Shown: piece after piece, positions 4,021 through 63,421 of the stretch
Position numbering within the stretch: position 1 is the first letter of the stretch
Layout: each line of letters opens with the position of its first letter
Virus record (IMG/VR): IMGVR_UViG_3300032268_000293
Coordinates: 1 to 64,000 of that record
Source of the DNA: a virus
Length of the DNA stretch: 64,000 nt
Strand: one strand, 5' to 3'
Position numbers and translations under genes: made by a program
Notes under the pieces: generated by a model
The model's database searches: none
The model's input: the letters and a program-made list of their open reading frames with translations, nothing else
What the model was told of the DNA's origin: nothing

Positions 4021-4022
4021 AA

Positions 4023-27572: not shown

Positions 27573-27895
27573 TAAAACCCCACCGATGAACCACAACCAC
27601 AAGAAGTTTTTGTTTTAGGATTAGTAATTACAAATCGAGACTCAAAGGGTTGCTCTTTATAATCAAGTGTTGCTTCGTTCAAATATTCCATTGACATGTA
27701 ATCTACAATCAATTTAACATCCGATGCTTCAAAAACAAAATCACCATCATCTATTGTGTTTTCAAAAGTAAACACATACTCGAAACCATTACAACCACCA
27801 CCACGAACAGCAACCCTAAGACCTTTAAGTGATGAGTCATTTTCTTCAATAATTAAATCGCGGATTCGTTCAGAGGCATTAGATGTCAATTGCAT
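27572..27895 (-). CDS. A-type Fe-S carrier (IscA/ErpA, HesB family)
   Basis: LRVAVRGGGCNGFEY and SCGCGSS. Confidence 0.92.
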   Translation of the reverse strand: MQLTSNASERIRDLIIEENDSSLKGLRVAVRGGGCNGFEYVFTFENTIDDGDFVFEASDVKLIVDYMSMEYLNEATLDYKEQPFESRFVITNPKTKTSCGCGSSVGF

Positions 27896-31383: not shown

Positions 31384-31445
31384 TTTGTTTCCTTCATCAA
31401 TAACTCTTTGAGCCCACATTTCCTCATTCTCAAGAATAGGAATAT

Positions 31446-32459
31446 TCAAATTTTCTTCCATACAGTATATCTCGCTTTCGCTTCTAAACCACTAACAGTG
31501 TATTCATCGATAAGTTTCAAAACCTTTTCTTGCGTGTAACCAGCAAGAATTAATTCATTTATATCTTTATATCCTGTCTCTGGCATTAAGGAAACAGTGT
31601 AACCAAGATCAATACACTTCTCAATTTGCTTACACAGTTCTTTATTTCTTGGTTCGTTATCAAAAACTACAACGAGATTAGTAGAAAGACCGCGAAGATA
31701 GAGACTATCAAAACTTGCTCCTGCAACAGCAATGGTGTTTGATAGAAAAAGAGAGTCAATCGGTCCTTCAACCGCATAAACTTTTTCAGCAAAATTGACA
31801 CGTTCAAGTCCATAAATTCTCTCCATATCATCATCAAGTTTGATTGTCATATATCTCGGTTGTTCATCGCCGAAAGCTCTACCCTGAAAAGCAAAAACTT
31901 TTCCGTGTTCATTAAAGAAGGGGATTACTAATCGAGGATGATCATTATCTTCTGAGGTGTATGTATATTTAACTCTGTTAACATACTTCTTCCACTTTGG
32001 CGCATAAAAAAGATTTTCATAATGTGTGCGTGGAATTTTACGTTTCTCAACATATAACACAGCAGGATGATCTGCTGGCATTGTATCAATCCGTCTAAGA
32101 CCACTAAGAGTATCATCTTGTAACTCGACAAAAACTGGCTTTGTGTCAGCAATTTCTATCGTTTTATGCGCATTATATCTCTTTGGACCCGACTTATAAC
32201 GCTCCATTACATACTGCTCATAAAGGTATGGGTCAACGTGTTTAATCAGATTGCCTGCGTTTGTTGACACTCCACAATTATGACACTTGTAAAACAAGTC
32301 ATTTTTTGAGGGATATGCGTATCCTCTTGCCTTCAGTTTGTTCTTGGTGCTATCGCCACAGAAGGGACAGGAGAAATTGAAGGTGTTGTCTTTCTTCTCC
32401 TTGAAATTTCGAAGGCGAGAAGAAAGTTGGGTGATGTATTTTAGATCAATGTATAGCAT
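31446..32459 (-). CDS. DNA primase (T4 gp61-like)
   Basis: CPFCGDS...CHNC zinc finger; FQGRA; VEGPIDSLF; FDNEPRN. Confidence 0.93.
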   Translation of the reverse strand: MLYIDLKYITQLSSRLRNFKEKKDNTFNFSCPFCGDSTKNKLKARGYAYPSKNDLFYKCHNCGVSTNAGNLIKHVDPYLYEQYVMERYKSGPKRYNAHKTIEIADTKPVFVELQDDTLSGLRRIDTMPADHPAVLYVEKRKIPRTHYENLFYAPKWKKYVNRVKYTYTSEDNDHPRLVIPFFNEHGKVFAFQGRAFGDEQPRYMTIKLDDDMERIYGLERVNFAEKVYAVEGPIDSLFLSNTIAVAGASFDSLYLRGLSTNLVVVFDNEPRNKELCKQIEKCIDLGYTVSLMPETGYKDINELILAGYTQEKVLKLIDEYTVSGLEAKARYTVWKKI

Positions 32460-39996: not shown

Positions 39997-40427
39997 TTAA
40001 GGTGACTCCTTATCATCCATCCGTGTTTTTCGTGAGTATCTATTCTGCCAGCGAGAAAATCAGCCAAACCTTGCTTGTTTTCTCTCGTAGCGATCTCCAT
40101 TGATTTATTTAGGGATTCTAAAACTCCATCATTCGCATTTTGAAGATCTTGGAGCATTTGTTCAACTGTAACCGACACATTTCCCTCATTTAATGTCTTA
40201 TATTCGTATATTTCGGAAATAGTCCTTGGAGCATATTCCCTCATAGCACGAATTTCTTCTGCGATATGGTCAATAGAACCATAAACATCTTCATACAACT
40301 TACCAAAGAAATCGTGAAACTGGGAAAAGTTTATTCCTTCTACATTCCAATGGTGTGATTGCGCTTTAAAATACATAACAAATGTATTTCCAAGTAAAAC
40401 TCTAAGCGACATTACTAATTCATTCAT
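39993..40427 (-). CDS. dps: Dps / ferritin-like protein
   Basis: HWNVEG..FSQFHDFF..LYE, DHIAE, HEKHGWM. Confidence 0.92.
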   Translation of the reverse strand: MNELVMSLRVLLGNTFVMYFKAQSHHWNVEGINFSQFHDFFGKLYEDVYGSIDHIAEEIRAMREYAPRTISEIYEYKTLNEGNVSVTVEQMLQDLQNANDGVLESLNKSMEIATRENKQGLADFLAGRIDTHEKHGWMIRSHLK

Positions 40428-40709
40428 TTAACAATCCCATGCTTTTCTAGACCAATAATTTGCGCTAGTCTTATCATTAGTATTTCCCTGTCCAGCTGAT
40501 CTTGCGCAGTAAGATTTTTTGCGAGCAGGAATATGTTTTTTAATGGAAAGGTTTTTATCCCCAAAATTTACCTTTTGTGCTTTACCATCTCCGTCTGGGT
40601 CAACGTAAACCTTTGACTTTTTTACATCACCAGACATAGGTTTATTAAGTGTAACGTTCTTTCCCTGATATGTAGCTTCGTTTAACAAGTATTCTTTGAA
40701 GGGAATCAT
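40428..40709 (-). CDS. Small basic protein with capsid-targeting-like N-terminus
   Basis: MIPFKEYLLNEA; VNFGD, RKKSYCAR, ANYWS. Confidence 0.7.
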   Translation of the reverse strand: MIPFKEYLLNEATYQGKNVTLNKPMSGDVKKSKVYVDPDGDGKAQKVNFGDKNLSIKKHIPARKKSYCARSAGQGNTNDKTSANYWSRKAWDC

Positions 40710-47137: not shown

Positions 47138-47857
47138 TTAACTCTGTTTTTTTCTTTGCTTACAAAGAACTCTCTCATATTTATTGTTCCATTTAATGAC
47201 TTGTTTAAACAACTTGGGTATTGCTTGGTTGTTGTGAGCATCGTAATTAAATGTTCTGAGATAGTATCGTAGAGTTTTTGAATCTCGACTTTTTCTGGCT
47301 CTAGAAAGTAATTGAGTTATTGGAACATTTGGTCGATTTCTTTTAAAGTCCAAGTATATACAATGGGCATATGCTTGTATTTCATCAAACTCCGAAAGAT
47401 ATTTTCTTTCTTCGTTCTTTTTAAGCTGTTTTACTTTTTTGTAGGGAAGAACATAATTTGACCACTCATCACATCTTCTATCAAACTGCATAAAATGCAC
47501 AAGTTCATGCATAGCAATTTGAATGAGTCTGAATTTAAATTTATTCCACGTTGTTTCTGTAAACGGGAATTTGTCAAAGTAATCTGTATAAATGTGTATA
47601 GCACACTGTCGTTCTTGTGGGTCATATTCACCACCCATTGCGACGTTTGTTAAATAGAATTTCGACTTCAGTTTCTCTGGGCGATACTCAACTTTAGTGC
47701 GCCATTTTTTGAAGTAGTTTGATAGACCCTTAGAATCGTTGCGATACAGGTCTAAATCGTTCCAAATTTTTGATGGAATGAATTTTGCTCTGAACGGACG
47801 TTCAGAGAAAGGTAGAAAATCTATGAAATCGATATTTACTTGTTTGAGATGTTCCAT
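47138..47857 (-). CDS. Putative zincin metallopeptidase
   Basis: HELVH and downstream DEIQAYA. Confidence 0.65.
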   Translation of the reverse strand: MEHLKQVNIDFIDFLPFSERPFRAKFIPSKIWNDLDLYRNDSKGLSNYFKKWRTKVEYRPEKLKSKFYLTNVAMGGEYDPQERQCAIHIYTDYFDKFPFTETTWNKFKFRLIQIAMHELVHFMQFDRRCDEWSNYVLPYKKVKQLKKNEERKYLSEFDEIQAYAHCIYLDFKRNRPNVPITQLLSRARKSRDSKTLRYYLRTFNYDAHNNQAIPKLFKQVIKWNNKYERVLCKQRKKQS

Positions 47858-47925: not shown

Positions 47926-49275
47926 TTATCCGAAAAATTCGTCTAAACTCTGGGTTTCTTGCGTTTCGAAGTGTTCATCGAACATATTTCGCGAATTTTT
48001 AGCCAAGTTTGGATCGAAATTCGTTTTTGTAAGAAGTTCGTTTAGATACCCAGTTGGCTTTTGTTCAGCCAAATCAACATAATGCTGGGCAATACGCTTA
48101 CGATCAAACTGCTGGATTAACTCATAGTTGTTGTTGACGATACGCATATACTCAGTCTCTGGCATATCGCAGTACTCAGCGATCTTTTCGCCATATTCTT
48201 TTGGTGTATAGGACTTCTTAAGCATACAGTAGTTGACCCCTGCTTTCAGAAGAACACCATTACCTTCTTCGTTGTTGGAAACGCCATAGTTCACAGCGAT
48301 GGGCACAGTCCCGATACGCATAGCATCCACGACAACCCGATTGAAATGCTCACCAAAAGTGTTAGACCAACTAGAATCAATAAGAAATCTAGAAGTTGAT
48401 AAAATCTCGTCACGTTTTCCTCCAGAAATAAAACCAAGATACTCGAAGTTGCCTGAGTTTTCGGCATTTTCCCAAATACGTTTACCTTCCCTATCAGGTG
48501 TTACGTCTGGGTCATATTGCCTAGTAGCAAAATAATCTTCTTTACATTTTTCCTTCGACATCATGTATGCTGCTTCAATACCATAACCACCAACAAGGGT
48601 TTTGACATTTTTCATGTAAGGTACTGCACGAATAAGGTCGTCCACACGCTTCCAGCGTTTAAATGTCTGTATTGACAGGATTTTGTTCTCGCGACCAGCA
48701 AACTGCGGAGTAGGTGGTACGCCAGCGATATCCTGAGGGTTTAAAATTAACGCTCGAGGTGTGGACATAAAATCAGCTGAGTCATACGCAGCAGGGTGTA
48801 CGCATGCGAGACCAGCAAAATGTTTTTCAAATATACTAATCCAAGGATAGAGTTTCTTTAGATTTGCGTCATGAATAATTACAATTTGTTTTGCTTTGAC
48901 ATTCTCAATCATTGGCAACCAATCTTTATATTTCTCGGTGTCCTTGTTTTTAAAACCGAAAATAGATTGCCAAATAATAATATCGTGTTTGTTTGCGTCT
49001 TCAACAAATTTGTCGATGGACTCTTTTACTTTATAAGAATAATATGGTGCCATCCAACCATCACCTTGATGAACAGGATAACCAGAACCAATACCAATCT
49101 CCCATCCTTCCTTCAATTCAGAAGGAATCTCAACAGGACGAACTGTCTTTGTGCCTTTAAGGTAGGCAAAATTTACTTCATGACCAAGTTCTTTTAATCC
49201 TGCCATTAGATGTTCGCAGTGATTAATGATTCCACCAAAGTTGTTGAAGGTGTGCATTACCATTAAAATTCTCAT
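47926..49275 (-). CDS. GT-B (GT4-like) glycosyltransferase, candidate DNA glycosyltransferase
   Basis: N-terminal FGGIINH, FKRWKR, EHFNRVVVDAMRIGTVP; ends SLDEFFG. Confidence 0.75.
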   Translation of the reverse strand: MRILMVMHTFNNFGGIINHCEHLMAGLKELGHEVNFAYLKGTKTVRPVEIPSELKEGWEIGIGSGYPVHQGDGWMAPYYSYKVKESIDKFVEDANKHDIIIWQSIFGFKNKDTEKYKDWLPMIENVKAKQIVIIHDANLKKLYPWISIFEKHFAGLACVHPAAYDSADFMSTPRALILNPQDIAGVPPTPQFAGRENKILSIQTFKRWKRVDDLIRAVPYMKNVKTLVGGYGIEAAYMMSKEKCKEDYFATRQYDPDVTPDREGKRIWENAENSGNFEYLGFISGGKRDEILSTSRFLIDSSWSNTFGEHFNRVVVDAMRIGTVPIAVNYGVSNNEEGNGVLLKAGVNYCMLKKSYTPKEYGEKIAEYCDMPETEYMRIVNNNYELIQQFDRKRIAQHYVDLAEQKPTGYLNELLTKTNFDPNLAKNSRNMFDEHFETQETQSLDEFFG

Positions 49276-50102
49276 GTCCAAAGTCCTTGTCTAATTTTAA
49301 TCAAACGAATCATCATGTCTTCGTCTTCTTGTTCATAGCGTTGCTCAATTTCAGTGCACAAGTCAAGTGCTTTTTTAGTTTCTTCTTTTTCTTCTTCGGT
49401 ACGATCCTCAAAGTCAAGGAATCCTTTATCAGCCTCGCGACGTTTATCGCAAATAGCAGACCAACCAGATGCTTCGTGGGCATCAACACGTTTTGGTCGC
49501 TCAACTGTCCACCAAGTATATAGATCTAGAATTTCTTGCGCTTTAATTGCTTGGTGAGTTAATTTACCAAAACCCTCATCATCGGGTTTGAGACCCCAAT
49601 CTTCACCAGCTGTCAATTTACGTTGCCATTCTAGATTAGCAAGTCCGCACTCTGGATTGCGCCAAGTGCGCCAACGGAACCATCCTGTGGCATACCAAGG
49701 TGATTTAAACTTCTTGCGTGACTCTTCATCCCAAACAACATGCCACCACGCAAGTTCTACTTCCACAAAATCGACAAGTTCATTGAAGAGGCATGGTAGG
49801 AAGCGATTTCCGACATCACACCAGTTTCCTGGCTTAATGTCACGAGGGTGGGCAGTAAGAGAATGAGTGCGAGTAACCCAGCGATTATTGATGTAGTATT
49901 TAACAGAGTAAATCGCATCAGGAATGTATAGAATTGCTCCCTGAATCGCATCAAGACCTTCTTCGGCAAGCCAGTATCGAAATTTGTGTGCTTCTTTTGC
50001 AGCTGCATTCCAGTTTCTCCATCCCTTTGATGTTTCTGCGTGTGGCTTTGGTGTCCCACGAAGCCAGTCGGCGAATTTAGTGCATGACCAATAGTTGCGC
50101 AT
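49272..50102 (-). CDS. Trp-rich hypothetical protein
   Basis: Coupled ORF; FNELVDFVE, LYTWWT, MIRLIKIRQGLWT. Confidence 0.7.
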   Translation of the reverse strand: MRNYWSCTKFADWLRGTPKPHAETSKGWRNWNAAAKEAHKFRYWLAEEGLDAIQGAILYIPDAIYSVKYYINNRWVTRTHSLTAHPRDIKPGNWCDVGNRFLPCLFNELVDFVEVELAWWHVVWDEESRKKFKSPWYATGWFRWRTWRNPECGLANLEWQRKLTAGEDWGLKPDDEGFGKLTHQAIKAQEILDLYTWWTVERPKRVDAHEASGWSAICDKRREADKGFLDFEDRTEEEKEETKKALDLCTEIEQRYEQEDEDMMIRLIKIRQGLWT

Positions 50103-50105
50103 GTT

Positions 50106-50321
50106 TTACCTCTTTAAATTTATGTATTCTTTAAAATAATTATCAAATTTGTTAATTAAGCTCTCAATGTCACTGCTGTTTGTAAGATCCTCAACTATGC
50201 GCTTCTCATCCATATTAAACTGTTTCGCATATCTTCTTGCGATACTTAGAAGAGTCGCAACTCTCATGTTAGGACTCTTCAAATTTAATGAAAGTTTTTG
50301 TCTTTCTTCACGAAAACTCAT
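50106..50321 (-). CDS. Hypothetical protein
   Basis: Overlaps the dioxygenase stop. Confidence 0.55.
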   Translation of the reverse strand: MSFREERQKLSLNLKSPNMRVATLLSIARRYAKQFNMDEKRIVEDLTNSSDIESLINKFDNYFKEYINLKR

Positions 50322-51631
50322 ACAAAGAATTCATCAATATCAGCCTTTACCGCATTGGGATGATACTTCGCCAAATCTTCTTCACCAAGTTTGTTGCGAA
50401 GGTAATCATACCACTCTTGTTCTTCCCACATTCCTGGGGAAACACCATTCCATAGTTTTTTCCATAGAGGGTGTTCTTTGTTCAATCTACGAGACTCAAC
50501 ATATTCATATCTAGTATTTTCGTATTCGTACGATCCAAGTTCTAACATGTTTTCACGCAAATAAACAACAAGCGAAACACGCTCAGAACCTTCTTCGCAT
50601 ACGATTGGTGTGTTACCATGAATAACCTCATGATTGTTTACCAACAACAAATCTCCTGGACGAACATTTACGGCAATACGAATTTCAGGGAAAATCAAAT
50701 AACCACCTGTGTATCTACCATCATTAGAAAGTGTCAACAGATTTGAAAGACCATCAGAAAAGTCGCCAGCATCACGATGAGCAGCAGTTCTAAATGTTTT
50801 ATTTACTGTTACTGTAGTAAAAGGTGTCTCAGGAATAACAAATCTTGGATCAATTTTATCTGTTGCTACTTTCTGAGCGGAATATCTTGTTGGTAATAGT
50901 GTCTCAAAACCTCTAGCCAAATGCTGAAGGAAGGGATACGCCATCTTAAACTTCTCAAAATTATCACGAGTATATGTAGTCGCACGACCAAACGGAATAC
51001 GAGGATAACGATCGAACCAACCTGCGATACCAGAATCAACTGGATTACCATAGGATGTTTCACTAACCATCTTCATAGTTTCTTGTGTTGATTCTGCTCT
51101 CTGCGCAGGTGTCAACGGAATAATACTGTCAACCCACTCATCAAAATTAAATTTGTTGCGGAAACGTGAGATAACCCAAACATTATTCTTACCCGAACCC
51201 AATGCTTTCAAACGTGACTCTGGTGTTGGATAACGTGAACGAATTTCTTCAATAACATCCTCATCTCCGAGTTTGGCTTTTTCTGCGTTGAGTAAAGCAA
51301 GCATTAGTTCTTCCTGATAATTTGTTACCCACTCACGACCTTCGCCTGTTACCGATGTCCCTTCTTTGATACCAGAAGCAAGTCCACGATTTTCAGTACG
51401 AACAGCAGCCTCACGCAATCCAGCATATGCTGCGTCTTGTTCTTCCTTTGAGAAAAAGTTTTTTCTAAACTTAAAGGCAATATGCCTTTCGTCTGGATCA
51501 ACTCCATAACCAGATGGAAGATAACAATCCGTATCCTCTTCAATCAAAATATCATAATTGGACTCATCAACAAACATACCAAGTAAATGTTCGCAGTCAT
51601 GTTTTTGTTCTAGTTTAATTACACGTGTCAT
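50318..51631 (-). CDS. TET/JBP-family 2OG-Fe(II) dioxygenase
   Basis: FTTVTVN..FRTAAHRDAGD (HxD), GGYLIFPE, IHGNTP, ERVSLVVYLRE; ends IDEFFV. Confidence 0.85.
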   Translation of the reverse strand: MTRVIKLEQKHDCEHLLGMFVDESNYDILIEEDTDCYLPSGYGVDPDERHIAFKFRKNFFSKEEQDAAYAGLREAAVRTENRGLASGIKEGTSVTGEGREWVTNYQEELMLALLNAEKAKLGDEDVIEEIRSRYPTPESRLKALGSGKNNVWVISRFRNKFNFDEWVDSIIPLTPAQRAESTQETMKMVSETSYGNPVDSGIAGWFDRYPRIPFGRATTYTRDNFEKFKMAYPFLQHLARGFETLLPTRYSAQKVATDKIDPRFVIPETPFTTVTVNKTFRTAAHRDAGDFSDGLSNLLTLSNDGRYTGGYLIFPEIRIAVNVRPGDLLLVNNHEVIHGNTPIVCEEGSERVSLVVYLRENMLELGSYEYENTRYEYVESRRLNKEHPLWKKLWNGVSPGMWEEQEWYDYLRNKLGEEDLAKYHPNAVKADIDEFFV

Positions 51632-53022
51632 ACTTTAAACCCTTCGAAATTGTTTTCTTCTATTCTTTTACCAAAAGAACTTTGATCAAATAGAGGAACA
51701 TCATTATCAACTTTACCCATACCACCCAAATTACTTTGAGCACTCATCTCAACATCATATAGACGCATATGTTTACGATCAACTCCAACAATAAATCTCT
51801 TATAGAAATTTGGATCAGAATAACGATTCTTCAACTGTTTCACCATAATCTGATTCAACTCCGCAAGTTCCTCTGTACTAATTAGAGCAATCATTAAGTC
51901 TGCTGTTGCTGGCAAACCGAAAGATTCAGAAGTATCTTCAAGACCAACATCAGTGTTACTATAACCAGAACGTGTAGTTTGTGTAGCAGAAACAATTGGC
52001 ACTTTATACTCAACAGCCAAACCACGAAGTTCTTCTGCGATTGCTTTAATATATGTATAAGAGTTTACATTTCCACTCAGTTTCAAACGCTGACTTGCAC
52101 AAATATTAATATAATCGATAAAGATAATGTCTGGCGTAAAGTCTTTCTTCAATCTCAACTCTTCAAGCAAAGCACGGAAATGACCAGCATGAGCAGAAGT
52201 GGTAGGATATTCTTTTACGACCAATTTACCATTCGTCTTTTCTTTCAACTTCTCAACACGAGAATCAAAGACCCTACGCTCAACCATCTTCAATCCTTCC
52301 ATAGAAAGATCAAGTAGGTTTGCGTCAATACGTTCTGCAATCTTTTCCTCAGCCATCTCCATGGTTATGTATAAAACATTAACACCCTTCATCAACATAG
52401 ACGAAGCAAAATGACACATTGCCAAAGATTTACCAACACCAGTACCAGCAAGAATAATGTTCAGCGTTTTCTTACTGACTCCTCCGTTCGTGATTTTATT
52501 GAGAAGTTCAATGTCGAAAGGAATCTTCTCTTCAACCCTGTGATAAAAATCATAACGATCAGCAGCATTTTCAAGATAGTCATGACCAACATGATTATCA
52601 AATGAAACGGCAAGAGCATCGCTAAGAATAGAAACAATCGCATCTTGGTTACGGTTTTTATCTTTTCCATCAATTATTTTGATTGAACTGAGAATAGCAT
52701 TATAAACTGCTTTATCTTTACAGAATTTTTCTGTTGATTCAACCAACCACTCCTCATTAGAATGTTCATCCGCAAAATCTTCAACAAGTTCGTTAATGTT
52801 TTTTACTTGTTCGTCAGTAACATCAGTTCTATTACTTACTTCAATTTTAACAATATCTTTACTTGGAACCTTACCATACTTGTTAAAGAATTTATCAATT
52901 TCCTCAAAAACAATACGATCTGTTCTCTCAGTAAAATACTCAGGAACCAGAAAGGGCATAACCTTTCTGGAATATTCCTCATTAGAAATTAGATTTGAAA
53001 AAATCTGATTTTCAATTCTCAT
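51628..53022 (-). CDS. Replicative helicase (T4 gp41-like)
   Basis: [37 protein letters not shown]. Confidence 0.95.
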
Positions 53023-54070
53023 TCAATTCTTCCTCTAGTTCTTCAATTTCTTGCTCAACGTCACTACCATAATTATACTTTGATTTACAATATTTGTCAA
53101 GTTGAGTTAAGATATCCTCAGTGAAGAAATTAGAGGGATTGCTTGCAATGTTTTTACCGAATACTTTTCTACCATCATGAACCTCGATACGACCACCCTG
53201 CGCTTTCCAGATTCCTGCTTCAACAGCAAGATCGGTTAGACCATGATGACGATCTAGACCTTTAGTGAAAGACAATTTTGTTTCAACCATAGATTTCTCT
53301 CTTGTGAAACGAGACTTCTCAAGTTTACACTTGATAATATTACCAACAACTTCAGTTCCGTCTTTATCTTGCGACTTAGAAAGGAACACGATTGTTGATG
53401 CTGCATATTTCAAGCCATCGCCACCACCCATAACTTTAGTTGGAATGTAAGCACCAACTGCTGCGTAAGTATGATTAGTCACAACCATAGCAATATCGAG
53501 TTTAGCCAACTTCAAAGATAGCACCCTGAAAGCACCTCGAATCAACTGCGCACGAGTCATATCTCGTGTATCTTTCCCCTCAAGCGTATCTTCCATTTCT
53601 TTAGCAGTTGAAAGCATACCCAATGAATCAAGGAACAACATCAAAGGTGGGCGATCTTTCTTTGGTGTCTTTTCATAAGCATCTAGAATCTTAGATGCTT
53701 GAGTGCGGAATTCTTGAATCGTAGAAACAGGAACAATAACAAAACGCTTGGTGTCAATACCACGTTCCTGAAGCATGTCCTTCGTCAACGCACCTTCTGT
53801 TTCAAAGTAAACGACTCCAGCTTGTTCATTAGTTCGAAGAAAATTTCCCGCAATGCCAAGAGCATAAAAGGTTTTTCCTGTGGAAGACTCACCAGCCAAA
53901 GCTGTAACTTTGTTGCTAGGTAAACCACCATAGATGCTACCACTGATAAGAGCATTAAAGGCATAAGAACCAGTATCGATAAAACTGCCAGTATCACCAA
54001 CCACACCATCATCAGCCAATCCCGCATATTCATTATCAAGTTCCTTTACAATATTTTTTAAAAAACTCAT
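53012..54070 (-). CDS. uvsX: RecA-like recombinase
   Basis: [31 protein letters not shown]. Confidence 0.93.
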
Positions 54071-54279
54071 TCTTTTGTCTCCTCTTCATCTTGTTTCACA
54101 TACTGAATCTCCTGCGCAATCATTGCCAAATATTCGACAGCGCAAACTAAACAATATGATAATTTTTCGTAACCAAATTCGGGCATGTTTACACGAAACA
54201 CGTAGTCATCTCTAACTTCACCATGTTTCGGACATACACACTTTGGTGGTTTTTCTAGTTGTATATTTTCAGTTTCCAT
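54067..54279 (-). CDS. Small putative Zn-binding protein
   Basis: CPKHG...YCLVC. Confidence 0.55.
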
Positions 54280-54285
54280 AATAAG

Positions 54286-54314
54286 ATTATACCTCTTTTC
54301 TGTTTAAATGTAAA
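54286..54314 (-). promoter_or_regulatory. Sigma70-type promoter
   Basis: TTTACA-17-TATAAT. Confidence 0.7.
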
Positions 54315-54318
54315 GTAA

Positions 54319-56799
54319 TCATGCGAAGAATTCATCTAGATCGTTTTTCTCAACAATACTCCAGTCAATTGCCTCAAGAATTATTGAAAGTGGATCAAGA
54401 AACACCTTCTCAAACTGTTTATCATAATCTATGTATTTATGTAGATTCAGCTCATTTGGTAAAGTACCAACAAACGAAATAATGTTTTCGTGTATTGTGT
54501 TTGGTTCACGCAAGTAAACGAATTTAATTTTATCACCATTCTTAATCAATTGATATTTGTTTAAGAGATTCATTTCTTTCATGTAGTGATTATATAACAA
54601 AGCACCACGGACATGAATTGGCGTAGCCTTTTTATAGATTGTTGATGAAGATTTATAATCATTCAAGTCATTTACGCCACGTGGGAAAGCAATCTCTTCC
54701 ACACTCATCGTATTAAATTTCTTTTGAAAGTCAAGAACGAACTTCCTTAGTTCTTTCTCATCACCACCCATAATCACTTTAATGGCATCTTTTAAAGTCT
54801 CACGAATAGTAGCAGGTGTTGACGACTTAACCACCTCAAGACCCATAATCTTCATCTTGGGTTGCGCATACTGAACACCCTCAGAGTTATGGACATTGAG
54901 AACGTAGCGTTTCTTAGCAGTCCATATACCTTTGTCGGCGATAGACTCACGCTTCATAATCATTTTTTGATCATAAGCATTCTGTCTTCGAGCAAGTTCT
55001 TGATAACATTTATCGATGAATGGTTGAACCTTGTCTTCGCATATCTTGTCGATTGTAACTATTACTTTTTGGGTGTCTTTTTGTTGTTCTTCTGTGAAGA
55101 TAGAATCAACAAGCGGAGCCATATTAATATACACAGAGTCAGTATCAACAGCAATAACATAGTCTGCTCCTTCAGTCTTTAACAATTTGTTGAAATATTC
55201 ATTGAGTCTATCGTGGATCCAACGAATAGAAAGTTGACCAGAAAGTGTAATACCTTCTGATAATCGTTTATCGTAGTATCGGAAATATTGATTAGCCAAA
55301 GCACCATAAGCAGAGTTAAGAGCAATCTTTAATGCCATCTGTAGGTTGTTGAGTCTAGATATCTCATTAGTCAATGCATGATTCTTTGTGTTCTCATATT
55401 CCTGCTGCACTTTCAGCATCTGCTTCTTTGACTTGCTTCGATCAGTATACATTTTCTCCATCAACTCAGGGAGGAAACCACGTACGTCTTTACGATAACA
55501 CCATCCATTCGCAGAAACAGCAAGTCCATTATTATCTGGCTCTTCTTTCAGAAACAAATCTACTCCACCAGAAACGCTTTTAACAATAGTCTCGGGAGAC
55601 ATATTATACTGCATAATCAAATGCGGATACAGACTATTCAAGTCAAACGAAACTACCCACTTATGAAATCCAATCAGAGGATCTTTAACATACGCACCTT
55701 CAATTGCTGTGTCTTTAGAGTTACCAGTCTTTGGTGGTATAACAATCTTTTTTGCACGCAAATGATTGTAGATTATAGTATCCCACATGCGAACCTGCGA
55801 AAACACATCTTCGTAGTTCACCTTTGCGTTATAAGCCATAACAATCGCCAACTCGACAAGTTTCATCTTGTCTTCAAGCATGTCAACAAGAGAGGTGTCA
55901 TGAATATTATAGTCAACGAAATCACGCCAGTGGTTTGTATAGAAATCTTTGAAAGAATCTCCTGGGTTTTCTTTCTTACGCTCACCAAGTTCCACAAAAG
56001 CAATATGGTCAAGACGATACGATTCCTGCATCGTATAAGTAAACTTCTTATAGAGATCGATGTAGTCAAGAACACTTACGCCAATAATATCATACGCAAT
56101 TTCTTTATTGCCTTTGATGTAGATTTCTCTGCGTGTGATCATATTCCAAGGCGACATCTTCTTAGAGTCATCTTCGCCGAGAACGTTGTGAATACGTTGA
56201 ATCAGATATGGGATATCGAACAGATTGATGTTCCAACCTGTAACAATATCTGGTGTGTTCTTACGCCAAAATGTTAAGAACTCGCGAAGCAGTTTTGCTT
56301 CCGAGTCACAGTGAATGTAGAAAGGACATTGACCATCGTAAGGTTTGCGACCAAACACAGTTAGACGTTTGGTCTTGTTGTCCATCAACGAGATTAGAAG
56401 TATTTCCTCATTCGCCGTTTCGATGTTAGGAAAACCATCCTCAGTCTCAGTTTCAATATCAATAGAGAAACACCTAATCTTGTCCTTGTCGTAAACAATT
56501 TCTGACGGATAATTATCCGAGATGTATTGGTAAGCATAATTTAAATTTCCATAAATTTTAAAACCCTCAACACCCTCGTACTTCTCGATAAAGTCTCGTG
56601 TGTCTTTAATATTACCTGGAGAGAATGAATACACAACTTCGCCATCAAGTGTGCGCATCATCTCTTTTGAATTTTTATGTTTTGATGTTACGTAGAGAGT
56701 TGGGTGGAAATCTATCTTCTCTTTAAATGTCTCACCATTCTCATAACCTCGAACGAGAATTTTATTCCCGATAGAACAAATGTTCGTATAAAACTGCAT
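54319..56799 (-). CDS. Family B DNA polymerase (T4 gp43-like)
   Basis: DIET exonuclease motif, SFDLNSLYP, KIALNSAYG, DTDS, KKRY; ends LDEFFA. Confidence 0.97.
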   Translation of the reverse strand: MQFYTNICSIGNKILVRGYENGETFKEKIDFHPTLYVTSKHKNSKEMMRTLDGEVVYSFSPGNIKDTRDFIEKYEGVEGFKIYGNLNYAYQYISDNYPSEIVYDKDKIRCFSIDIETETEDGFPNIETANEEILLISLMDNKTKRLTVFGRKPYDGQCPFYIHCDSEAKLLREFLTFWRKNTPDIVTGWNINLFDIPYLIQRIHNVLGEDDSKKMSPWNMITRREIYIKGNKEIAYDIIGVSVLDYIDLYKKFTYTMQESYRLDHIAFVELGERKKENPGDSFKDFYTNHWRDFVDYNIHDTSLVDMLEDKMKLVELAIVMAYNAKVNYEDVFSQVRMWDTIIYNHLRAKKIVIPPKTGNSKDTAIEGAYVKDPLIGFHKWVVSFDLNSLYPHLIMQYNMSPETIVKSVSGGVDLFLKEEPDNNGLAVSANGWCYRKDVRGFLPELMEKMYTDRSKSKKQMLKVQQEYENTKNHALTNEISRLNNLQMALKIALNSAYGALANQYFRYYDKRLSEGITLSGQLSIRWIHDRLNEYFNKLLKTEGADYVIAVDTDSVYINMAPLVDSIFTEEQQKDTQKVIVTIDKICEDKVQPFIDKCYQELARRQNAYDQKMIMKRESIADKGIWTAKKRYVLNVHNSEGVQYAQPKMKIMGLEVVKSSTPATIRETLKDAIKVIMGGDEKELRKFVLDFQKKFNTMSVEEIAFPRGVNDLNDYKSSSTIYKKATPIHVRGALLYNHYMKEMNLLNKYQLIKNGDKIKFVYLREPNTIHENIISFVGTLPNELNLHKYIDYDKQFEKVFLDPLSIILEAIDWSIVEKNDLDEFFA

Positions 56800-56854: not shown

Positions 56855-57421
56855 TTATTTTCCATGCACCAACTGCATAATATCATATGCGCAGTCGTGA
56901 ACAGGATGGTGCTTAATTACATTGGCACCTTTATCGAATGGAATCTTAAGATCGCAATATCCATTCTTCGTTGTTTCGCAAAGACAATCTAGAGCAGTTC
57001 GAACATCACGCCAACAGTTATATGGCGCAAGCAAATCAACATCTACTGCTTTACATAAACTATCAATTACCATCTGATCAAGAGAACCACGTGACCAGAA
57101 TGTTGGGTTACTTGGTTTACCAATGTAGTCACGCAACTTCTCAATCCCATCAAGAACAGAAATATCATTCTTTGACGGAACAAAACTCACTTCTCTAATC
57201 GAAGGATGAATTTTACTCCACCATTCAATAGTAGATTTGTCAATCGTGCGATTATAATTTTTTACTTGTTCCTCAACATTCAATTTAACGAACAACGCAT
57301 CTTGTAGATAGTCGTCGTAAGTTTTTTCTGTATTTGTTGGGTCAAATCTAATAATCGCAGCAGACAAAATAACACTGGTGGATTCTACACCAATAGTCTC
57401 TACGTCAAACATATACATCAT
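56855..57421 (-). CDS. DEDDh 3'-5' exonuclease (DexA-like)
   Basis: FDVET, TIEWW, WSRGSLD, RDVRT, HHPVHD. Confidence 0.82.
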   Translation of the reverse strand: MMYMFDVETIGVESTSVILSAAIIRFDPTNTEKTYDDYLQDALFVKLNVEEQVKNYNRTIDKSTIEWWSKIHPSIREVSFVPSKNDISVLDGIEKLRDYIGKPSNPTFWSRGSLDQMVIDSLCKAVDVDLLAPYNCWRDVRTALDCLCETTKNGYCDLKIPFDKGANVIKHHPVHDCAYDIMQLVHGK

Positions 57422-58131
57422 TCGATTTGTTCCTTCACTAATGTATCAAGTTCTTCTTCAGTAAGTTCTTGCATCAAACCGCACCACTGAGTAGGTTTAA
57501 TTTTCTTACCATCCCAATACTCACCCCATGATTTACCATCCCATGTGGCAAATTGATCATAGTCACGATCTTTAGTTTTAATGATATAGCGACCAATCTT
57601 TTCTGGTTTAATTTTACCATCAATCATTTCTGTTCTAGGTAATCCCCACAAAACATCAGTAGTAATATTATCTATGTAGTCTTCATGCGCATTCTCTAAA
57701 CCTGCGAAATCTATTACATCACTAGGCAGCGAATCAATAGAATCTTTATCAGAAAGACTGTATTCATAACAATCGTCATGTCCCTCAATAAACTGCCCAG
57801 CATATCCCATTCCTGGCTCGTGGTAATATGCTTCCACATCCCACCCCTGCCCATCAAGATATTCATAAAGAGATGTTGGTGGGGACCATGCTGATTCGAA
57901 AGCAATCCAAATACAATTATCTTCCTGTCGTTCCCAGTCTATAATACCCATCTCCCATTTTGTTCCCCAATTATTGACTGACCAATCATACTCCCACTCA
58001 CCAGAAGGATTTGGGCGCAAGTGCTGGAATACTTGTTGATTTTCTTTATCTTCTAAAACCTTTTGTAAGGTATCAATTTTAGTTACATCATCATTGCGAA
58101 AATATGCGCTGTTATCACACCAATTAGGCAT
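57418..58131 (-). CDS. DUF1281/YubB-like protein
   Basis: MPNWCDN, NWGTKW, FESAWSPP, YHEPGMGYAG. Confidence 0.75.
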   Translation of the reverse strand: MPNWCDNSAYFRNDDVTKIDTLQKVLEDKENQQVFQHLRPNPSGEWEYDWSVNNWGTKWEMGIIDWERQEDNCIWIAFESAWSPPTSLYEYLDGQGWDVEAYYHEPGMGYAGQFIEGHDDCYEYSLSDKDSIDSLPSDVIDFAGLENAHEDYIDNITTDVLWGLPRTEMIDGKIKPEKIGRYIIKTKDRDYDQFATWDGKSWGEYWDGKKIKPTQWCGLMQELTEEELDTLVKEQIE

Positions 58132-59215: not shown

Positions 59216-59449
59216 TTATTCGCCTGGAGGTGAGTGCAGACGGGACTCTTTTTCAACAAGCATCTCCAACCAATTAACAGCTTCGTTCTGATTCTTGAAA
59301 TGTCTTGTGTGAAACTCGCAAGTTGCTGGATTGATAGCAACGATCATAACATATTTGTCTCGATATACAGATGCTTTGAATACCCAGTCCCCTCTTCGGA
59401 CTGGTATAAATGAAACAAGTTTACCGTATATTTTTGATTTCTGCATCAA
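59216..59449 (-). CDS. Hypothetical protein
   Basis: 77-aa ORF. Confidence 0.55.
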   Translation of the reverse strand: MMQKSKIYGKLVSFIPVRRGDWVFKASVYRDKYVMIVAINPATCEFHTRHFKNQNEAVNWLEMLVEKESRLHSPPGE

Positions 59450-59453
59450 AATA

Positions 59454-59479
59454 TTTAGGGGAACCGAAGTCCCCCTAAA
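59454..59479 (-). terminator. UUCG-capped hairpin, probable terminator
   Basis: TTTAGGGGGAC-TTCG-GTTCCCCTAAA followed by TATTTT. Confidence 0.65.
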
Positions 59480-59560
59480 CAGTTTTATTTCACTTTACTG
59501 GCGTTGGTGTTTTACCATTCACCCAATCCCAATCATCATCTGTCATTGGGATCCAGTTTG

Positions 59561-59698
59561 TCATTTGCATTCTCCGTATTGTCGCATTAAGTCTTGCGCT
59601 TCTTTATACTTTCCATTTCTAGAAAGTTCAGCAGCAGCACGAGCATAGCCAATACCTTTCAACATGACATAAAATTTGCGGAAAAATGTTTTCATCAT
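59561..59698 (-). CDS. Small protein, 45 aa (not in ORF track)
   Basis: MMKTFFRKFYVMLKGIGYARAAAELSRNG...; ATGA overlap with the hsp20 stop. Confidence 0.5.
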   Translation of the reverse strand: MMKTFFRKFYVMLKGIGYARAAAELSRNGKYKEAQDLMRQYGECK

Positions 59699-60171
59699 TT
59701 CCCCTCAGTCAATAACTGTTTCTCAGCTTTTGACTTAACTGCGATTTTCTTTGGTTGCTTTGCTTCTGGAACCAAACGCTCCAAAGCAATTTTAAGCATA
59801 CCATTAAAAATCTCGGCATCTTTAACTTCTACTTCATCATTCAATACGAATGAACGAGTGAAGGCACGATTGGCGATACCTTTGAACAAGAAACCATCTT
59901 CTTGGTCTTCAGCTTTAATATTACCACGAACAACCAATTTACCACCATCAATTTCAATATCAATGTCTTGCTGAGCAAAACCTGCGACAGCAATCTCGAT
60001 CGTGTAATGATTCTCACCATTCTTGCGAATGTTATATGGTGGATAATTAGGAATGTTTTTGGCTACATCATCATGTAGTTTTTGTAAACGATGCCAATGT
60101 TCATCGAAACCTACAAAAAATTTGTCAATGTCTTTAGTGCCCCAGAAAGTGGGGATAAAATCGTGTCCCAT
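59695..60171 (-). CDS. Small heat shock protein Hsp20 (IbpA-like)
   Basis: NYPPYNI, IEIAVAGF, GIANRAFTRSF, NGMLKIALER. Confidence 0.95.
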   Translation of the reverse strand: MGHDFIPTFWGTKDIDKFFVGFDEHWHRLQKLHDDVAKNIPNYPPYNIRKNGENHYTIEIAVAGFAQQDIDIEIDGGKLVVRGNIKAEDQEDGFLFKGIANRAFTRSFVLNDEVEVKDAEIFNGMLKIALERLVPEAKQPKKIAVKSKAEKQLLTEGK

Positions 60172-60181
60172 AATTTTCTCC

Positions 60182-60406
60182 TTACTTAGTTGCGAATGCT
60201 TTTTTGGCATCAAAAGAAGTTGCAGCTGAACCCACTGTAGTGAAAAAATCTACAGAAGATTTGGCGACATTCTTAGCAAATGATTGCTGAGCATCGATAT
60301 AAGTTTGGAGTTGTTTTGCGACTGCCTCGTTTTGAACGAATGTCTTAACGAATTGAGTCTTTGCACCAGAAATGGTGTCGATAGTTGTGTTGATTGCTTG
60401 TAACAT
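60182..60406 (-). CDS. Small helical protein, phasin-like candidate
   Basis: Ala/Gln/Thr-rich amphipathic helices; SD AGGAG. Confidence 0.45.
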   Translation of the reverse strand: MLQAINTTIDTISGAKTQFVKTFVQNEAVAKQLQTYIDAQQSFAKNVAKSSVDFFTTVGSAATSFDAKKAFATK

Positions 60407-60419
60407 ATTTTCTCCTATT

Positions 60420-60556
60420 AAGCGAGTTAAATTAAAAAATGCTACCCCGAAGGCATAGCGATCCTGCTTACTGTTTACAGGGACACCTTATCGTAGTGTC
60501 AGCCTTAAGACGCTCCTAAGGTAGTAGAGTCTTTACGTTCCCATCCCGATTGGGAC
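60420..60556 (-). ncRNA. Candidate structured leader RNA of the hsp20 operon
   Basis: Five consecutive hairpins, including GCTATGCC-TTCG-GGGTAGC, between a late promoter and the SD. Confidence 0.5.
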
Positions 60557-60561
60557 AAAAA

Positions 60562-60569
60562 TATTTATA
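60562..60569 (-). promoter_or_regulatory. T4-type late promoter TATAAATA
   Basis: Exact match. Confidence 0.65.
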
Positions 60570-60574
60570 ACAGG

Positions 60575-60757
60575 TTACTTCTTTTCTGCAGGTTTTTTAT
60601 CATCTTTTTTCGCAGGTGCTGGCGCAGATGCTGCTGGCTTTGCGTCCTTAGCGACTGCTGCTGGCTTCGCTTCTTCTTTCTTAGCTGGTGCTGCTGCTTG
60701 AGCAAAAACGGATGTTGAGAAAACTGCTGCTGTAAACAATGTTGCGATTGATTTCAT
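60575..60757 (-). CDS. Small secreted Ala/Lys/Pro-rich protein
   Basis: Signal peptide ending SVFA; low-complexity tail. Confidence 0.7.
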   Translation of the reverse strand: MKSIATLFTAAVFSTSVFAQAAAPAKKEEAKPAAVAKDAKPAASAPAPAKKDDKKPAEKK

Positions 60758-60989: not shown

Positions 60990-61415
60990 TTACTTGTTTA
61001 CGTTTTTTTTCCCAATATTATATTTTGGTACTAGTTCCCATTCATCTTTCTCTTTAAAAGAAAGAACCTTTATTTGCGAAAGTGATGCTTCTGGTCTCGA
61101 TTCTTTCGATTTTGTTACAGAAAGCAAACCCCAATCTTGCAGTAATACTGCAACTGTGTTTCTTCGCTCAATATCGCTGCTAGTTAGATTAGACTCTTTT
61201 CCGTCTAAAGCAAATAACTCTTTGAAATGCACAATATAGTATCTACCTTGTTTGTGCAAAATATGACAGGATTGGTAAAGTTTCTTTTCTTTTCTTGACG
61301 CAATACCAATACGTGTCAATGTCTCCTTAATTTTAAGGAAGTTATCTGGTTCGGGTAATGTCACCTCGAGCATGCTGTCTGGAGTCCAGTCATAGTAAAC
61401 AGTCTCAACAGTCAT
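60990..61415 (-). CDS. regA: Translational repressor RegA
   Basis: DNFLKIKETLTRIGIAS, LYQSCHILHKQGRYYIVHFKELFALDG. Confidence 0.95.
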   Translation of the reverse strand: MTVETVYYDWTPDSMLEVTLPEPDNFLKIKETLTRIGIASRKEKKLYQSCHILHKQGRYYIVHFKELFALDGKESNLTSSDIERRNTVAVLLQDWGLLSVTKSKESRPEASLSQIKVLSFKEKDEWELVPKYNIGKKNVNK

Positions 61416-61789
61416 AATTTTCCACCTTTTTCGAATTTTTGTTTTATCATATTAAGTTGTTCTTCGGATAATATGGAAAGAGCAACTTTTGCCTTTTCTC
61501 TACTATAATTATAGTAGTTCATTACCATAGTCAAATCGTCTCCAGTTTCCAGCTTGTGCCATTTAGAGAATCGCTTTTTCTTGGTAATACTATTTAGCAA
61601 ATAACGAAATTGCCACTTTTTTGGTATATAGTGGCGAACATTCATCTCATTTGCTTGTAGGCATGAGTCAACAAAAAATGAAAGACCTTTATTTACGATG
61701 TATGGATCGTAAAATTTTTGAAAAGATGGATCGTCCGATAAATCGTCCTTTGTAATATTAATACAATTTAGATAGTCAAATGGCGACAT
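61412..61789 (-). CDS. Clamp loader small subunit (T4 gp62-like)
   Basis: ANEMN, KKKRFSKW, YYNYSREKA; synteny. Confidence 0.9.
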   Translation of the reverse strand: MSPFDYLNCINITKDDLSDDPSFQKFYDPYIVNKGLSFFVDSCLQANEMNVRHYIPKKWQFRYLLNSITKKKRFSKWHKLETGDDLTMVMNYYNYSREKAKVALSILSEEQLNMIKQKFEKGGKL

Positions 61790-61796
61790 CGCACCC

Positions 61797-62735
61797 TCAC
61801 TTAAACTTACAGCCGACCATAATTTCAGTCATTGCTGCGATATTATTAAGTTCTGGGTTTGCGACAAATGCTGCTTTGTATTGATAATCTGCTAAAATCA
61901 AAATAAGTTTTGGTACTGAACTTGCGTCCATAAAATCAACTGCATTGTCGTAAAGAGTCTTAAACAACTGAGAGGTGTCAATATCAGAATTTTTAGCAAT
62001 CCATTTGCGTGTGTTTGCGAAATCCTTATCTTTTAGATAACCAATGAGTTCTTTAAAAGAGTCATCAGAAAGATTGATAAGAATACCAGTGTCGATTCGA
62101 CCATTCACCGAATAACGCTGAAGTTCGTTCAGAACTCTACGGAAATCGGGGAAATATGTCTCAACAAGTTTCGCGACTGCTTTACTATCTACATCAGCAA
62201 CACCCTCTTGTGAGAGGATATCCATTACTCTGCGATAAAACGCAGCAGCAACTTTTGGTTTTTCTGCTGAGGGGATTTTAAATTCAATTACTGAACATCT
62301 TGACCAGAGTGGTTCGATGATTTTGTGCTTGAAGTTGCAGGTGAAGATAAATCGACAATTGTTGGAAAATTCTTCGATAAAAGAGCGCAGGGCTGCTTGG
62401 TTTGCTGTTGTGAGATTGTCTGCTTCGTCAAGGATGACAACTTTCGTTGATGATTCGAGACTAACAGACGAGGCAAAGCTCTTGATTTTTGTACGTAGGA
62501 TGTCAATTCCGTTCTCCTCAGATCCATTAATAAACATATATTCAGCACCGACTTCTCGGCACAATGCTTTTGCTATGGTAGTTTTACCTACACCTGCTCC
62601 ACCTGAAAATAGGAACATAGGTAATTCACCACCAGCAACAAAATTCTTAAATGTTTCTTTTAGTGATTCTGGAAGAATACACTCATCAATCGTTTGTGGG
62701 CGATACTTCTCTACCCAAAGAAAATGGTCTTTCAT
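61797..62735 (-). CDS. Clamp loader large subunit (T4 gp44-like)
   Basis: WVEKYRP, GGAGVGKT, LDEAD, SRC, PDFRR. Confidence 0.95.
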   Translation of the reverse strand: MKDHFLWVEKYRPQTIDECILPESLKETFKNFVAGGELPMFLFSGGAGVGKTTIAKALCREVGAEYMFINGSEENGIDILRTKIKSFASSVSLESSTKVVILDEADNLTTANQAALRSFIEEFSNNCRFIFTCNFKHKIIEPLWSRCSVIEFKIPSAEKPKVAAAFYRRVMDILSQEGVADVDSKAVAKLVETYFPDFRRVLNELQRYSVNGRIDTGILINLSDDSFKELIGYLKDKDFANTRKWIAKNSDIDTSQLFKTLYDNAVDFMDASSVPKLILILADYQYKAAFVANPELNNIAAMTEIMVGCKFK

Positions 62736-62755: not shown

Positions 62756-63421
62756 TTATTCAGCAGTTGAGCCAGTCTCAACAGCAACGTAATATGCTAG
62801 TTCTGCGCTTGTGTTCTTAAAACGACAAATCTTCATTTTAGCAATAGTAACGTCATATGCTCCAGGAAGCATCTTAAGGTTTTCAACTTTCAGATATGCT
62901 GTAAAATTTCTATCAGTTGTACCAAGATCAATTTCGAATTTATTACTTAGCGGATTCTTGTTGTCGAATACACGTGCAGTAACATTAGCACCATCACCAG
63001 AAATAGAAACATCGTTTACTTTCAAAATACCAGCAGAACGGATGACATGGTCTAGATCGCCTGATGTAAGTTTAAAAGAAATGTTTGTGTCATCCTCTGG
63101 GAATGCGATAGATTTGGTAGGTGCTTTCAATGTATTAGTGTCTGCTGCTTTGTACTTGATAACATTCTTACCTTGTTTAACTTCGACGATGTCGTTATTA
63201 AATGTAAACTCTGGGTCTTCGAAGAGTGAAACAACACCGAGGAATTCGTTTACATCATAGATACCAAAATCTTGTGGAAAAGATTCCTTTACAGTTGCTT
63301 CAGCAAAAACATTATTACCTTCGTTCTTTGTCGAAAGTTTATTACCCTGCTTAATTAGCAGATTCATGTTGATGGAGGCGAAGTTCTTCACGAGAGTTTG
63401 TGTTTCTTTAGTCAGTTTCAT
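62756..63421 (-). CDS. Sliding clamp (T4 gp45-like)
   Basis: KNFASIN, FGIYDVNEFL, ENLKMLPGAY; synteny. Confidence 0.92.
   Translation of the reverse strand: MKLTKETQTLVKNFASINMNLLIKQGNKLSTKNEGNNVFAEATVKESFPQDFGIYDVNEFLGVVSLFEDPEFTFNNDIVEVKQGKNVIKYKAADTNTLKAPTKSIAFPEDDTNISFKLTSGDLDHVIRSAGILKVNDVSISGDGANVTARVFDNKNPLSNKFEIDLGTTDRNFTAYLKVENLKMLPGAYDVTIAKMKICRFKNTSAELAYYVAVETGSTAE

Follow-up and report, generated by a model that had tools for sequence, protein, structure and literature searches.

Polymerase-type C-terminal tails on a TET/JBP dioxygenase and a glycosyltransferase of an uncultured T4-like phage point to probable docking of DNA-modifying enzymes on the gp45 sliding clamp

Why should a DNA polymerase, a DNA dioxygenase and a glycosyltransferase (GT) of one phage end in nearly the same residues? 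The three proteins are encoded within the first 64 kb (the window, 64,000 nucleotides) of the 79,831-base IMG/VR record IMGVR_UViG_3300032268_000293, whose completeness is put at 49%. The window covers the replication region of an uncultured T4-like phage and encodes a cognate gp45 clamp together with its gp44/62 loader. A preliminary description of this DNA had noted the shared (L/I)DEFF ending and proposed that both modifying enzymes dock on gp45, with the result that nascent phage DNA, and not host DNA, is modified at the fork. In the analysis described here, docking of the TET/JBP and GT enzymes on gp45 was found to be well supported by sequence comparison and modelling, and a clamp-tethered, replication-coupled hypermodification is judged a rather likely explanation of the tails. 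The proteins concerned are as follows.

54319..56799, minus strand: gp43-type family-B DNA polymerase, 826 amino acids, ending NDLDEFFA (tail codons 54322-54345)
50318..51631, minus strand: TET/JBP (5mYOX) 2-oxoglutarate (2OG)/Fe(II) DNA dioxygenase, 437 amino acids, ending ADIDEFFV (tail codons 50321-50344)
47926..49281, minus strand: GT-B glycosyltransferase, 451 amino acids, ending QSLDEFFG (tail codons 47929-47952)
62756..63421, minus strand: gp45 sliding clamp, 221 amino acids, the proposed docking platform (phrog_223, 7.5e-64)

All three open reading frames (ORFs) and their tails were recovered at the places first described, and the statement that no other protein of the window ends in this way held for all ORFs of at least 40 amino acids; the remaining matches to the search pattern in the window were two short plus-strand ORFs with unrelated ends. 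Across the whole record, the DNA pattern for D-E-F-F occurs three times on the minus strand and never on the plus strand, and in a six-frame translation DEFF is present only at the three tails, where it fills positions −5 to −2 ahead of a single last residue and the stop. Given the composition of the proteome itself, 1.5e-4 [LI]DEFF tails would be expected among 124 ORFs, while three were observed. With a looser consensus derived from the clade, shuffling gave a mean of 0.017 against the three observed, and the one further match in the proteome was internal. At the 3′ ends of the three genes, 15 to 20 of the last 24 nucleotides are alike, corresponding to the motif codons, and the 39 nucleotides upstream agree at 10 to 12 positions, which is the level expected by chance. 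As the DNA likeness is confined to the motif codons, the resemblance appears to be held at the level of the protein rather than by a copied DNA cassette; a duplicated 3′ cassette was rejected because of the chance-level agreement upstream.

Conservation was examined in 131 loci with TET orthologues (52-96% TET identity) from two IMG/VR scans, all counts being of distinct sequences and a tail being defined as [LIVM]-x-x-[FLMW]-[FLMWY] plus at most one further residue. The preliminary description had named a lack of conservation in orthologues as an outcome that would speak against it; instead, the tail was present in all 38 polymerases, 88 of 93 TET proteins and 21 of 22 GTs. The same scan detected no tail in gp41 (0/57), UvsX (0/32), the exonuclease (0/29), gp45 (0/22) or ORF239, the gene downstream of the GT (0/27). 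Alignments of the GT showed a conserved body extending to HF(E/K), a linker of 2-8 variable residues and then the conserved tail, and those of the TET protein showed the same arrangement with a linker of 0-8 variable residues. The tails comprise the last 6-7 residues and have the clade consensus (S/T/D)-L-(D/E)-x-(F/L/M)-F, in most cases with one small residue after it. A body, a short variable linker and a conserved tail are, to judge from the alignments, the anatomy of a linear docking motif. Other carriers of the tail were rare, amounting to 37 of 1562 distinct ORFs of at least 100 amino acids in the loci, and nearly all of these were encoded beside TET and have DNA bases as their known or expected substrate. 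They include the following.

ADDT (PF18724), amino-acid:DNA transferase: tail GLEALW, GLEAFL or GLEEFF
TAGT (PF20691), TET-associated glycosyltransferase: tail TLESFFG or TLEDFFG
Two GNAT groups: tails SLEEFLV and VDLNSFL
One Dam-like D12 methylase: tail NLDDFF

Three complete relatives were assembled, G001 (173 kb), G002 (162 kb) and G010 (165 kb), and in each the strict tail was found on the polymerase, the TET protein and the local transferase. Their gp55 proteins carry the motif near the C terminus with a short acidic stretch after it (NNLESFLGDENGS in G010, DLDDFLGDNNGELDN in G002), the motif variants being NLESFLG..., DLDDFLG... (G002) and GLEKFV.... No gp55 was found within the window's 79.8-kb record.

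The distribution of the tail among more distant TET proteins was assessed with the 150 best cluster representatives from a TET scan of 1.84 billion proteins. Long forms (approximately 430-480 amino acids), which align from end to end, were mostly tailed; forms of approximately 300 amino acids, which have only the catalytic core in common, were almost never tailed. Two loci with short TET proteins, L117 and L118, had no detectable T4-type replication genes, and the adjacent ADDT or GT was without the acidic-hydrophobic tail; in L117 the genes ahead of TET are a portal gene and a weak ParB-like gene. On the basis of these two loci, the tail so far seems to accompany a T4-type replisome, not the enzyme families themselves. 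Many of the short TET proteins share another C-terminal motif, roughly ERAK..R..GDPL(Y/W/H) (examples are P0174, P0184, P0199, P0233, P0236, P0250, L117:3077-4036 and L118:3546-4487), which may represent the C-terminal extension belonging to the ParB-dependent subclass of PMC13229309.

A megablast search of GenBank phages gave matches of no more than ~72% identity, confined to the helicase gene of marine cyanomyoviruses, so that the DNA-level comparison turned up no close relative in culture. With tblastn, long-form TET proteins were detected in the cultured T4-like Stenotrophomonas phage DLP6 (47% identity) and Caulobacter phage Cr30 (41%). In DLP6 the polymerase ends in TLDSFFA, TET in TLGDFFV and TAGT in DLSSFFN, while a neighboring sugar-nucleotide (nucleotidyl-) transferase, which has a small-molecule substrate, is untailed. 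This division between tailed DNA-acting enzymes and an untailed neighbor upheld the earlier suggestion that the tail is itself an argument for DNA as the substrate of the GT. In Cr30 the polymerase ends in DLSSLFD, a TAGT-like protein in DLSKLF and TET in ...GATLF; the ADDT of this phage is untailed and adjoins an inositol-1-phosphate synthase gene. In three cultured phages the TET/JBP gene bears the GenBank label "SNF2 DNA repair protein", apparently a misannotation passed on from record to record.

DLP6 (KU682439.2), 27179-28525: TET/JBP
Cr30 (KF301602.1), 59353-60681: TET/JBP
S-CBWM1 (MG450654.1), 3867-5123: TET/JBP

The polymerase links these tails to a known ligand of the clamp. It matches Pfam DNA_pol_B (1.5e-28), DNA_pol_B_exo1 (5.5e-25) and phrog_262 (E = 0) and aligns with T4 gp43 over the full length (31.5% identity), the alignment running through the last residues. 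T4 gp43 ends in ASLDFLFG and T4 gp55 in PSLDFLYEAND. The window polymerase has its peptide at the position homologous to that of T4 and RB69 gp43, and the gp55 motif of the relatives, with its acidic extension, resembles the SLDFLYEAND end of T4 gp55. The consensus here, L-(D/E)-x-Phi-F, is nearer to the RB69 pattern SLFDMF, which we take to be the peptide of entry 1B8H, than to the T4 pattern LDFLF. In gp43, gp55 and gp33, interchangeable hydrophobic-acidic C-terminal clamp epitopes lie behind unstructured linkers (PMC2988020), and T4 DNA ligase uses an internal LDFLF loop to bind gp45, the Kd measured for the loop peptide being ~10.7 μM (PMC6212786). The tails described here share with those of T4 and RB69 gp43, gp55 and gp33 a short hydrophobic-acidic peptide at or near the C terminus, a variable linker and several clients of one trimeric clamp; they differ in that the carriers are base-modifying enzymes, namely TET/JBP and GT-B here and TAGT, ADDT, GNAT and Dam proteins in relatives.

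The gp45 of the window matches T4 gp45 (1CZD, 6DRT and 7D7D) and RB69 gp45 (1B77 and 1B8H) over its full length, with E values of ~1e-24, and its homologues carry PF02916 and PF09116. A complex of the gp45 trimer with TET residues 398-437 was modelled using a separate alignment for each partner and scored 0.64, compared to 0.01 for the best of three controls. The score mark is reached by 58 of 80 solved complexes and by 2 of 110 mismatched pairs, counts which apply only roughly here since the alignments were our own and the clamp was a trimer. Between runs, at least 65% of contacts agreed, and the partner pLDDT (per-residue model confidence) was at least 45. Contacts were predicted for TET residues 427-437, mainly I432, F435 and F436, and on gp45 for residues 35-39, the interdomain connector (101-108), 178, 197-198 and the C-terminal strand (211-216). 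Residues 101-108, 197-198 and 211-216 of gp45 are mostly invariant in 54 homologues, and the modelled patch is the face described as the ligand site of T4 and RB69 gp45 (PMC2988020, PMC6212786). Structure prediction of gp45 with a tail, one of the checks suggested at the outset, therefore placed the TET tail in the canonical ligand pocket. The model shows a likeness to a clamp ligand and supports binding rather than proving it for this copy. In an AlphaFold2 (AF2) model of the whole TET protein, mean pLDDT was 83 and that of the tail was 48; the tail, briefly helical, is the sole low-confidence segment and stands at the end of an otherwise confident model.

Taken with the position of the tail, its conservation and its restriction to one class of enzymes, the controlled model leaves the proposal that the modifying enzymes dock on gp45 well supported, the binding itself being a prediction from sequence and structure modelling. 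According to this proposal, the polymerase would end in the lineage's own version of the gp43 clamp-binding peptide of T4 and RB69, and TET/JBP and GT-B would have gained that peptide too, set behind a short variable linker. Riding on clamps that gp44/62 has placed on replicating phage DNA, the modifying enzymes would move along the duplex, and base hypermodification would thereby be coupled to replication and be both fast and dense. Modification of freshly copied DNA is thus probably performed on the clamp. Within this scheme we infer the binding, its effect on activity and thymine as the substrate.

The assignment of the two modifying enzymes was based on the following matches. The dioxygenase matches Pfam Tet_JBP (PF12851) at 1.3e-22, with 80.2 bits against a cutoff of 34.9, and phrog_24024 at 5.5e-144. 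Its iron triad HxD...H and 2OG-binding arginine (H285, D287, H338 and R351) are invariant in 53 sequences, and its best Protein Data Bank folds are TET2-DNA, CcTet and NgTET1 (E values of 1e-10 to 1e-9). The GT matches Glycos_transf_1 (PF00534) over residues 194-385 at 5.6e-10, with 39.5 bits against a cutoff of 26.4. No C5-cytosine methyltransferase (PF00145) was found in the 49%-complete record or in five relatives of at least 90% completeness. Searches for a ThyA-family protein were negative for the record and for four complete relatives; the window does encode ThyX. ParB (PF02195) gave nothing above the cutoff in the record or in four complete relatives. Hence, neither the partner C5-methyltransferase of the 5-methylcytosine (5mC)-oxidising phage TET pathway nor the adjacent ParB-like activator of the ParB-dependent T-dioxygenase subclass was seen. 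A subthreshold ParB_N-like match (17.7 bits) does occur at 115121-115228 of G001, in a 445-amino-acid open frame between TET (111081-112373) and ADDT (115812-116840); this frame may encode a kinase or an activator of that pathway. Most phage 5mYOX proteins are reported to have no accompanying C5-methyltransferase and to be probable producers of 5-hydroxymethyluracil (5hmU) (PMC13229309). The absence of both a C5-methyltransferase and ThyA indicates that the chemistry is probably T to 5hmU to glycosyl-5hmU, in which TET would oxidise thymine to 5hmU and the GT would then glycosylate 5hmU. The alternative, that the dioxygenase oxidises 5mC and the sugar ends on 5-hydroxymethylcytosine rather than on 5hmU, draws on the characterised phage TET43-type enzymes, which act on 5mC and are followed by GTs (Burke et al. 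2021, PMC8256090), and on the incompleteness of the record. It is nevertheless unlikely, given the lack of PF00145 noted above and of any ThyA-family enzyme able to make 5-methyl-dCMP and the pairing, in relatives, of the same TET with ADDT, a family of thymidine hypermodification pathways.

Several observations weigh against a clamp-tethered hypermodification. The tails of 5 of the 93 TET orthologues are degenerate. In G001 the polymerase ends in SLEDFF but TET in TLENMF and ADDT in GLEALW. Co-variation of the tails with that of the polymerase, which the preliminary description had offered as a check, proved weak at the level of residues: TET and GT match at the −3 position (F/L/M) in several groups, as do the polymerase and the TAGT-like protein in Cr30, with exceptions in G001, L043 and L054. 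Because of these exceptions, and because relatedness is a confounding factor, co-variation was set aside as evidence. The identity of the substrate rests on the absence of genes from a record that is only 49% complete. Solved clamp-peptide complexes exist (1B8H, 6DRT and 7D7D), and the success of the model may therefore reflect memory. Tethering need not dominate activity either, as a study of T4 alpha-GT, an enzyme that binds gp45, concluded that expression level, and not the clamp, sets its share of glucosylation (PMC13216743). Lastly, a phrog_150 baseplate-hub protein ends in IEGIDSFF, LEGILDFFE or LEGLDSFF in the three complete relatives, and this tail-like end on a structural protein means that the pattern is not strictly exclusive.

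G010, 24723-25433 (in L109): baseplate-hub protein
G001, 39880-40596 (L090:1880-2596): baseplate-hub protein
G002, 57088-57816 (L101:88-816): baseplate-hub protein

The tails could be accounted for in other ways. Resemblance by chance or through recent gene conversion has the shortness of the motif in its favor and nothing else. The excess of three tails over an expectation of 1.5e-4 and the retention of the tail down to 41-52% identity and in cultured phages contradict chance, and the limitation of DNA similarity to the motif codons contradicts gene conversion; the conservation data already refute this explanation, and its probability is practically negligible. It is very unlikely that the tail binds some other common partner (such as gp32, a helicase loader or a chaperone) or acts as a degradation or localisation signal. 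The similar end of the baseplate-hub protein would fit with this, as would the fact that gp45 binding is so far predicted from sequence and models, but the polymerase tail corresponds in position to the gp43 tails of T4 and RB69, for which gp45 binding has been defined by experiment, gp55 of the relatives carries the motif as T4 gp55 does, and the tail was modelled into the canonical pocket when controls scored 0.01.

Two further explanations accept the binding to gp45 and differ in its purpose. Since a gp45 trimer offers just three pockets and a number of clients have one motif in common, the tails might mainly compete with the polymerase or gp55 for the clamp and time replication or late transcription rather than deliver enzymes. 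We regard this as highly improbable: the motif is present on five or six unrelated families whose sole common feature is that they act on DNA bases, neighboring small-molecule enzymes are without it, and a regulator would not need a catalytic domain with an invariant active site. The original proposal of self/non-self marking, by which only phage DNA copied by the replisome is marked and host DNA stays unmodified, draws on the same evidence for clamp docking and on the loading of clamps mostly on replicating phage DNA. However, the sequence data are silent on discrimination, modification of host DNA has no evident cost to the phage, gp45 loading takes place wherever there is a primer terminus or nick, and speed, density or completeness and processivity would account for the tail equally well. 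For the last two reasons, we treat self/non-self marking as a gloss on docking and consider it doubtful as the main purpose of the tails. Delivery of the modifying enzymes by the clamp is thus the explanation that we prefer. A broader form of it is a speculation which we put forward only tentatively and as one joint claim: that the gp45 ring would serve as a tool belt holding polymerase, dioxygenase and transferase at once, converting T via 5hmU to a base-J-like glycosylated base inside the replisome, and that, more generally, 5mYOX pathways would be delivered by two kinds of clamp, gp45 via an LDEFF-type tail in T4-like phages and a ParB-type CTP clamp via R..GDPL(Y/W/H) in other phages.

The genes surrounding the three tailed proteins form a T4-type replication block on the minus strand, in the order gp45, gp44, gp62, RegA, Hsp20, exonuclease, gp43 polymerase, a 70-amino-acid ORF, UvsX, gp41, TET/JBP, ORF71, ORF276 and GT-B. 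UvsX and gp41 lie between the polymerase and TET. Features of the window in addition to those given above are as follows.

61797-62735, minus strand: gp44 clamp loader (phrog_168, 5.1e-120; blastp against T4 gp44, 5e-64)
61412-61789, minus strand: gp62 clamp loader (phrog_225, 1.7e-38)
60990-61415, minus strand: RegA
59695-60213, minus strand: Hsp20 small heat shock protein
56855-57421, minus strand: exonuclease
53012-54070, minus strand: UvsX recombinase, without a clamp tail (Pfam RecA; phrog_97)
51628-53022, minus strand: gp41 helicase, without a clamp tail (Pfam DnaB_C; phrog_19)
50106..50321, minus strand: ORF71, a small ORF between TET and ORF276
49272..50102, minus strand: ORF276, a tryptophan-rich conserved protein between TET and the GT, without a clamp tail (ends RQGLWT)
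47138-47857: ORF239, directly downstream of the GT
30730-31461: ThyX flavin-dependent thymidylate synthase

ORF276 had no match in Pfam and PHROG searches and only viral hypothetical proteins in an Atlas search. Its 11 distinct orthologues are confined to the closest clade and none has a clamp tail, although they have an invariant C-terminal end of their own, LIK(I/V)R(Q/H)(G/S)LWT; the AF2 model was poor (pLDDT of 62). For ORF71, no family match was found in Pfam or PHROG, and blastp across the loci detected no orthologue. ORF239 has an HExxH motif (MHELVH) and is kept in at least 27 loci, some of them without a GT; it may be a metallopeptidase-like core gene outside the modification module. 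The C terminus of gp41 has its own conserved short motif (NNFEGFKV in the window; ESFDGFKF, EGFSGFKF and TGFADFKF in relatives, L119-L167), which is unlike the clamp tail and may serve to dock gp41 on a different replisome partner, e.g., the primase or loader. With regard to Hsp20, heat shock protein genes have been noted near phage TET genes by Burke et al. (PMC8256090).

The system has several precedents. Binding of T4 alpha-GT to gp45 was reported in 2004 (Sommer et al.) and confirmed in 2026 (PMC13216743), and the enzymes described here resemble it in that a phage DNA glycosyltransferase is associated with the clamp and modification is proposed to be concomitant with replication. T4 alpha-GT has no polymerase-like tail, ending in ...QFDIITK, and it binds gp45 despite a C-terminal His tag, which indicates that its mode of binding differs from that proposed for the tail. 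In addition, T4 makes hydroxymethylcytosine before replication, whereas here the first step is itself performed by an enzyme acting on DNA. Pathways in which a phage 5mYOX and a GT hypermodify DNA have been published (PMC8256090; bioRxiv 10.1101/2023.12.21.572611; PMC13229309) and share with the present one a post-synthetic course in which TET/JBP acts on the DNA first and a GT or other DNA transferases come next. The papers on phage TET, GT and T-dioxygenase enzymes report polymerase, clamp and clamp loader genes as neighbors and say nothing of a clamp-binding tail. In the GT preprint, all post-replicative pathways came from uncultured sequences (bioRxiv 10.1101/2023.12.21.572611), in contrast to the pathway genes present in cultured DLP6 and Cr30.

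A full-text literature search yielded no account of this tail on TET, GT or ADDT enzymes. What is new is a known docking peptide on new classes of client. The locus had been put forward as a candidate for an undescribed system, and this applies to the tail on these enzymes but not to gp45 binding by T4 alpha-GT or to the TET-GT chemistry, both of which are in the literature (PMC13216743, PMC8256090, PMC13229309).

Outside the phages, resemblances are functional and do not imply membership; the clamp family and the motif are different. In eukaryotes, DNMT1 binds PCNA via a PIP box and modification follows the fork, providing an analogue. Neither JBP nor JGT of the base J pathway is known to use PCNA. 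That pathway proceeds from T to 5hmU to glucosyl-hmU by means of a TET/JBP enzyme (JBP1/2) and a GT (JGT) (PMC2655668).

The tail offers a cheap sequence marker, flagging unannotated DNA-acting neighbors in T4-like genomes. Published enzymes of phage TET pathways were purified with C-terminal His6 tags (PMC8256090), and such tags would alter a motif that needs a free C terminus. The two cultured carriers of the arrangement, Caulobacter phage Cr30 and Stenotrophomonas phage DLP6, are usable for experiments. For the phage, post-replicative hypermodification must outrun host nucleases, and the rationale for modifying DNA after rather than before replication has been called "a mystery" (PMC13229309). 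A polymerase-type tail on the DNA-acting enzymes of the pathway offers a concrete answer, which, if true, would be that these enzymes travel on the replication clamp.

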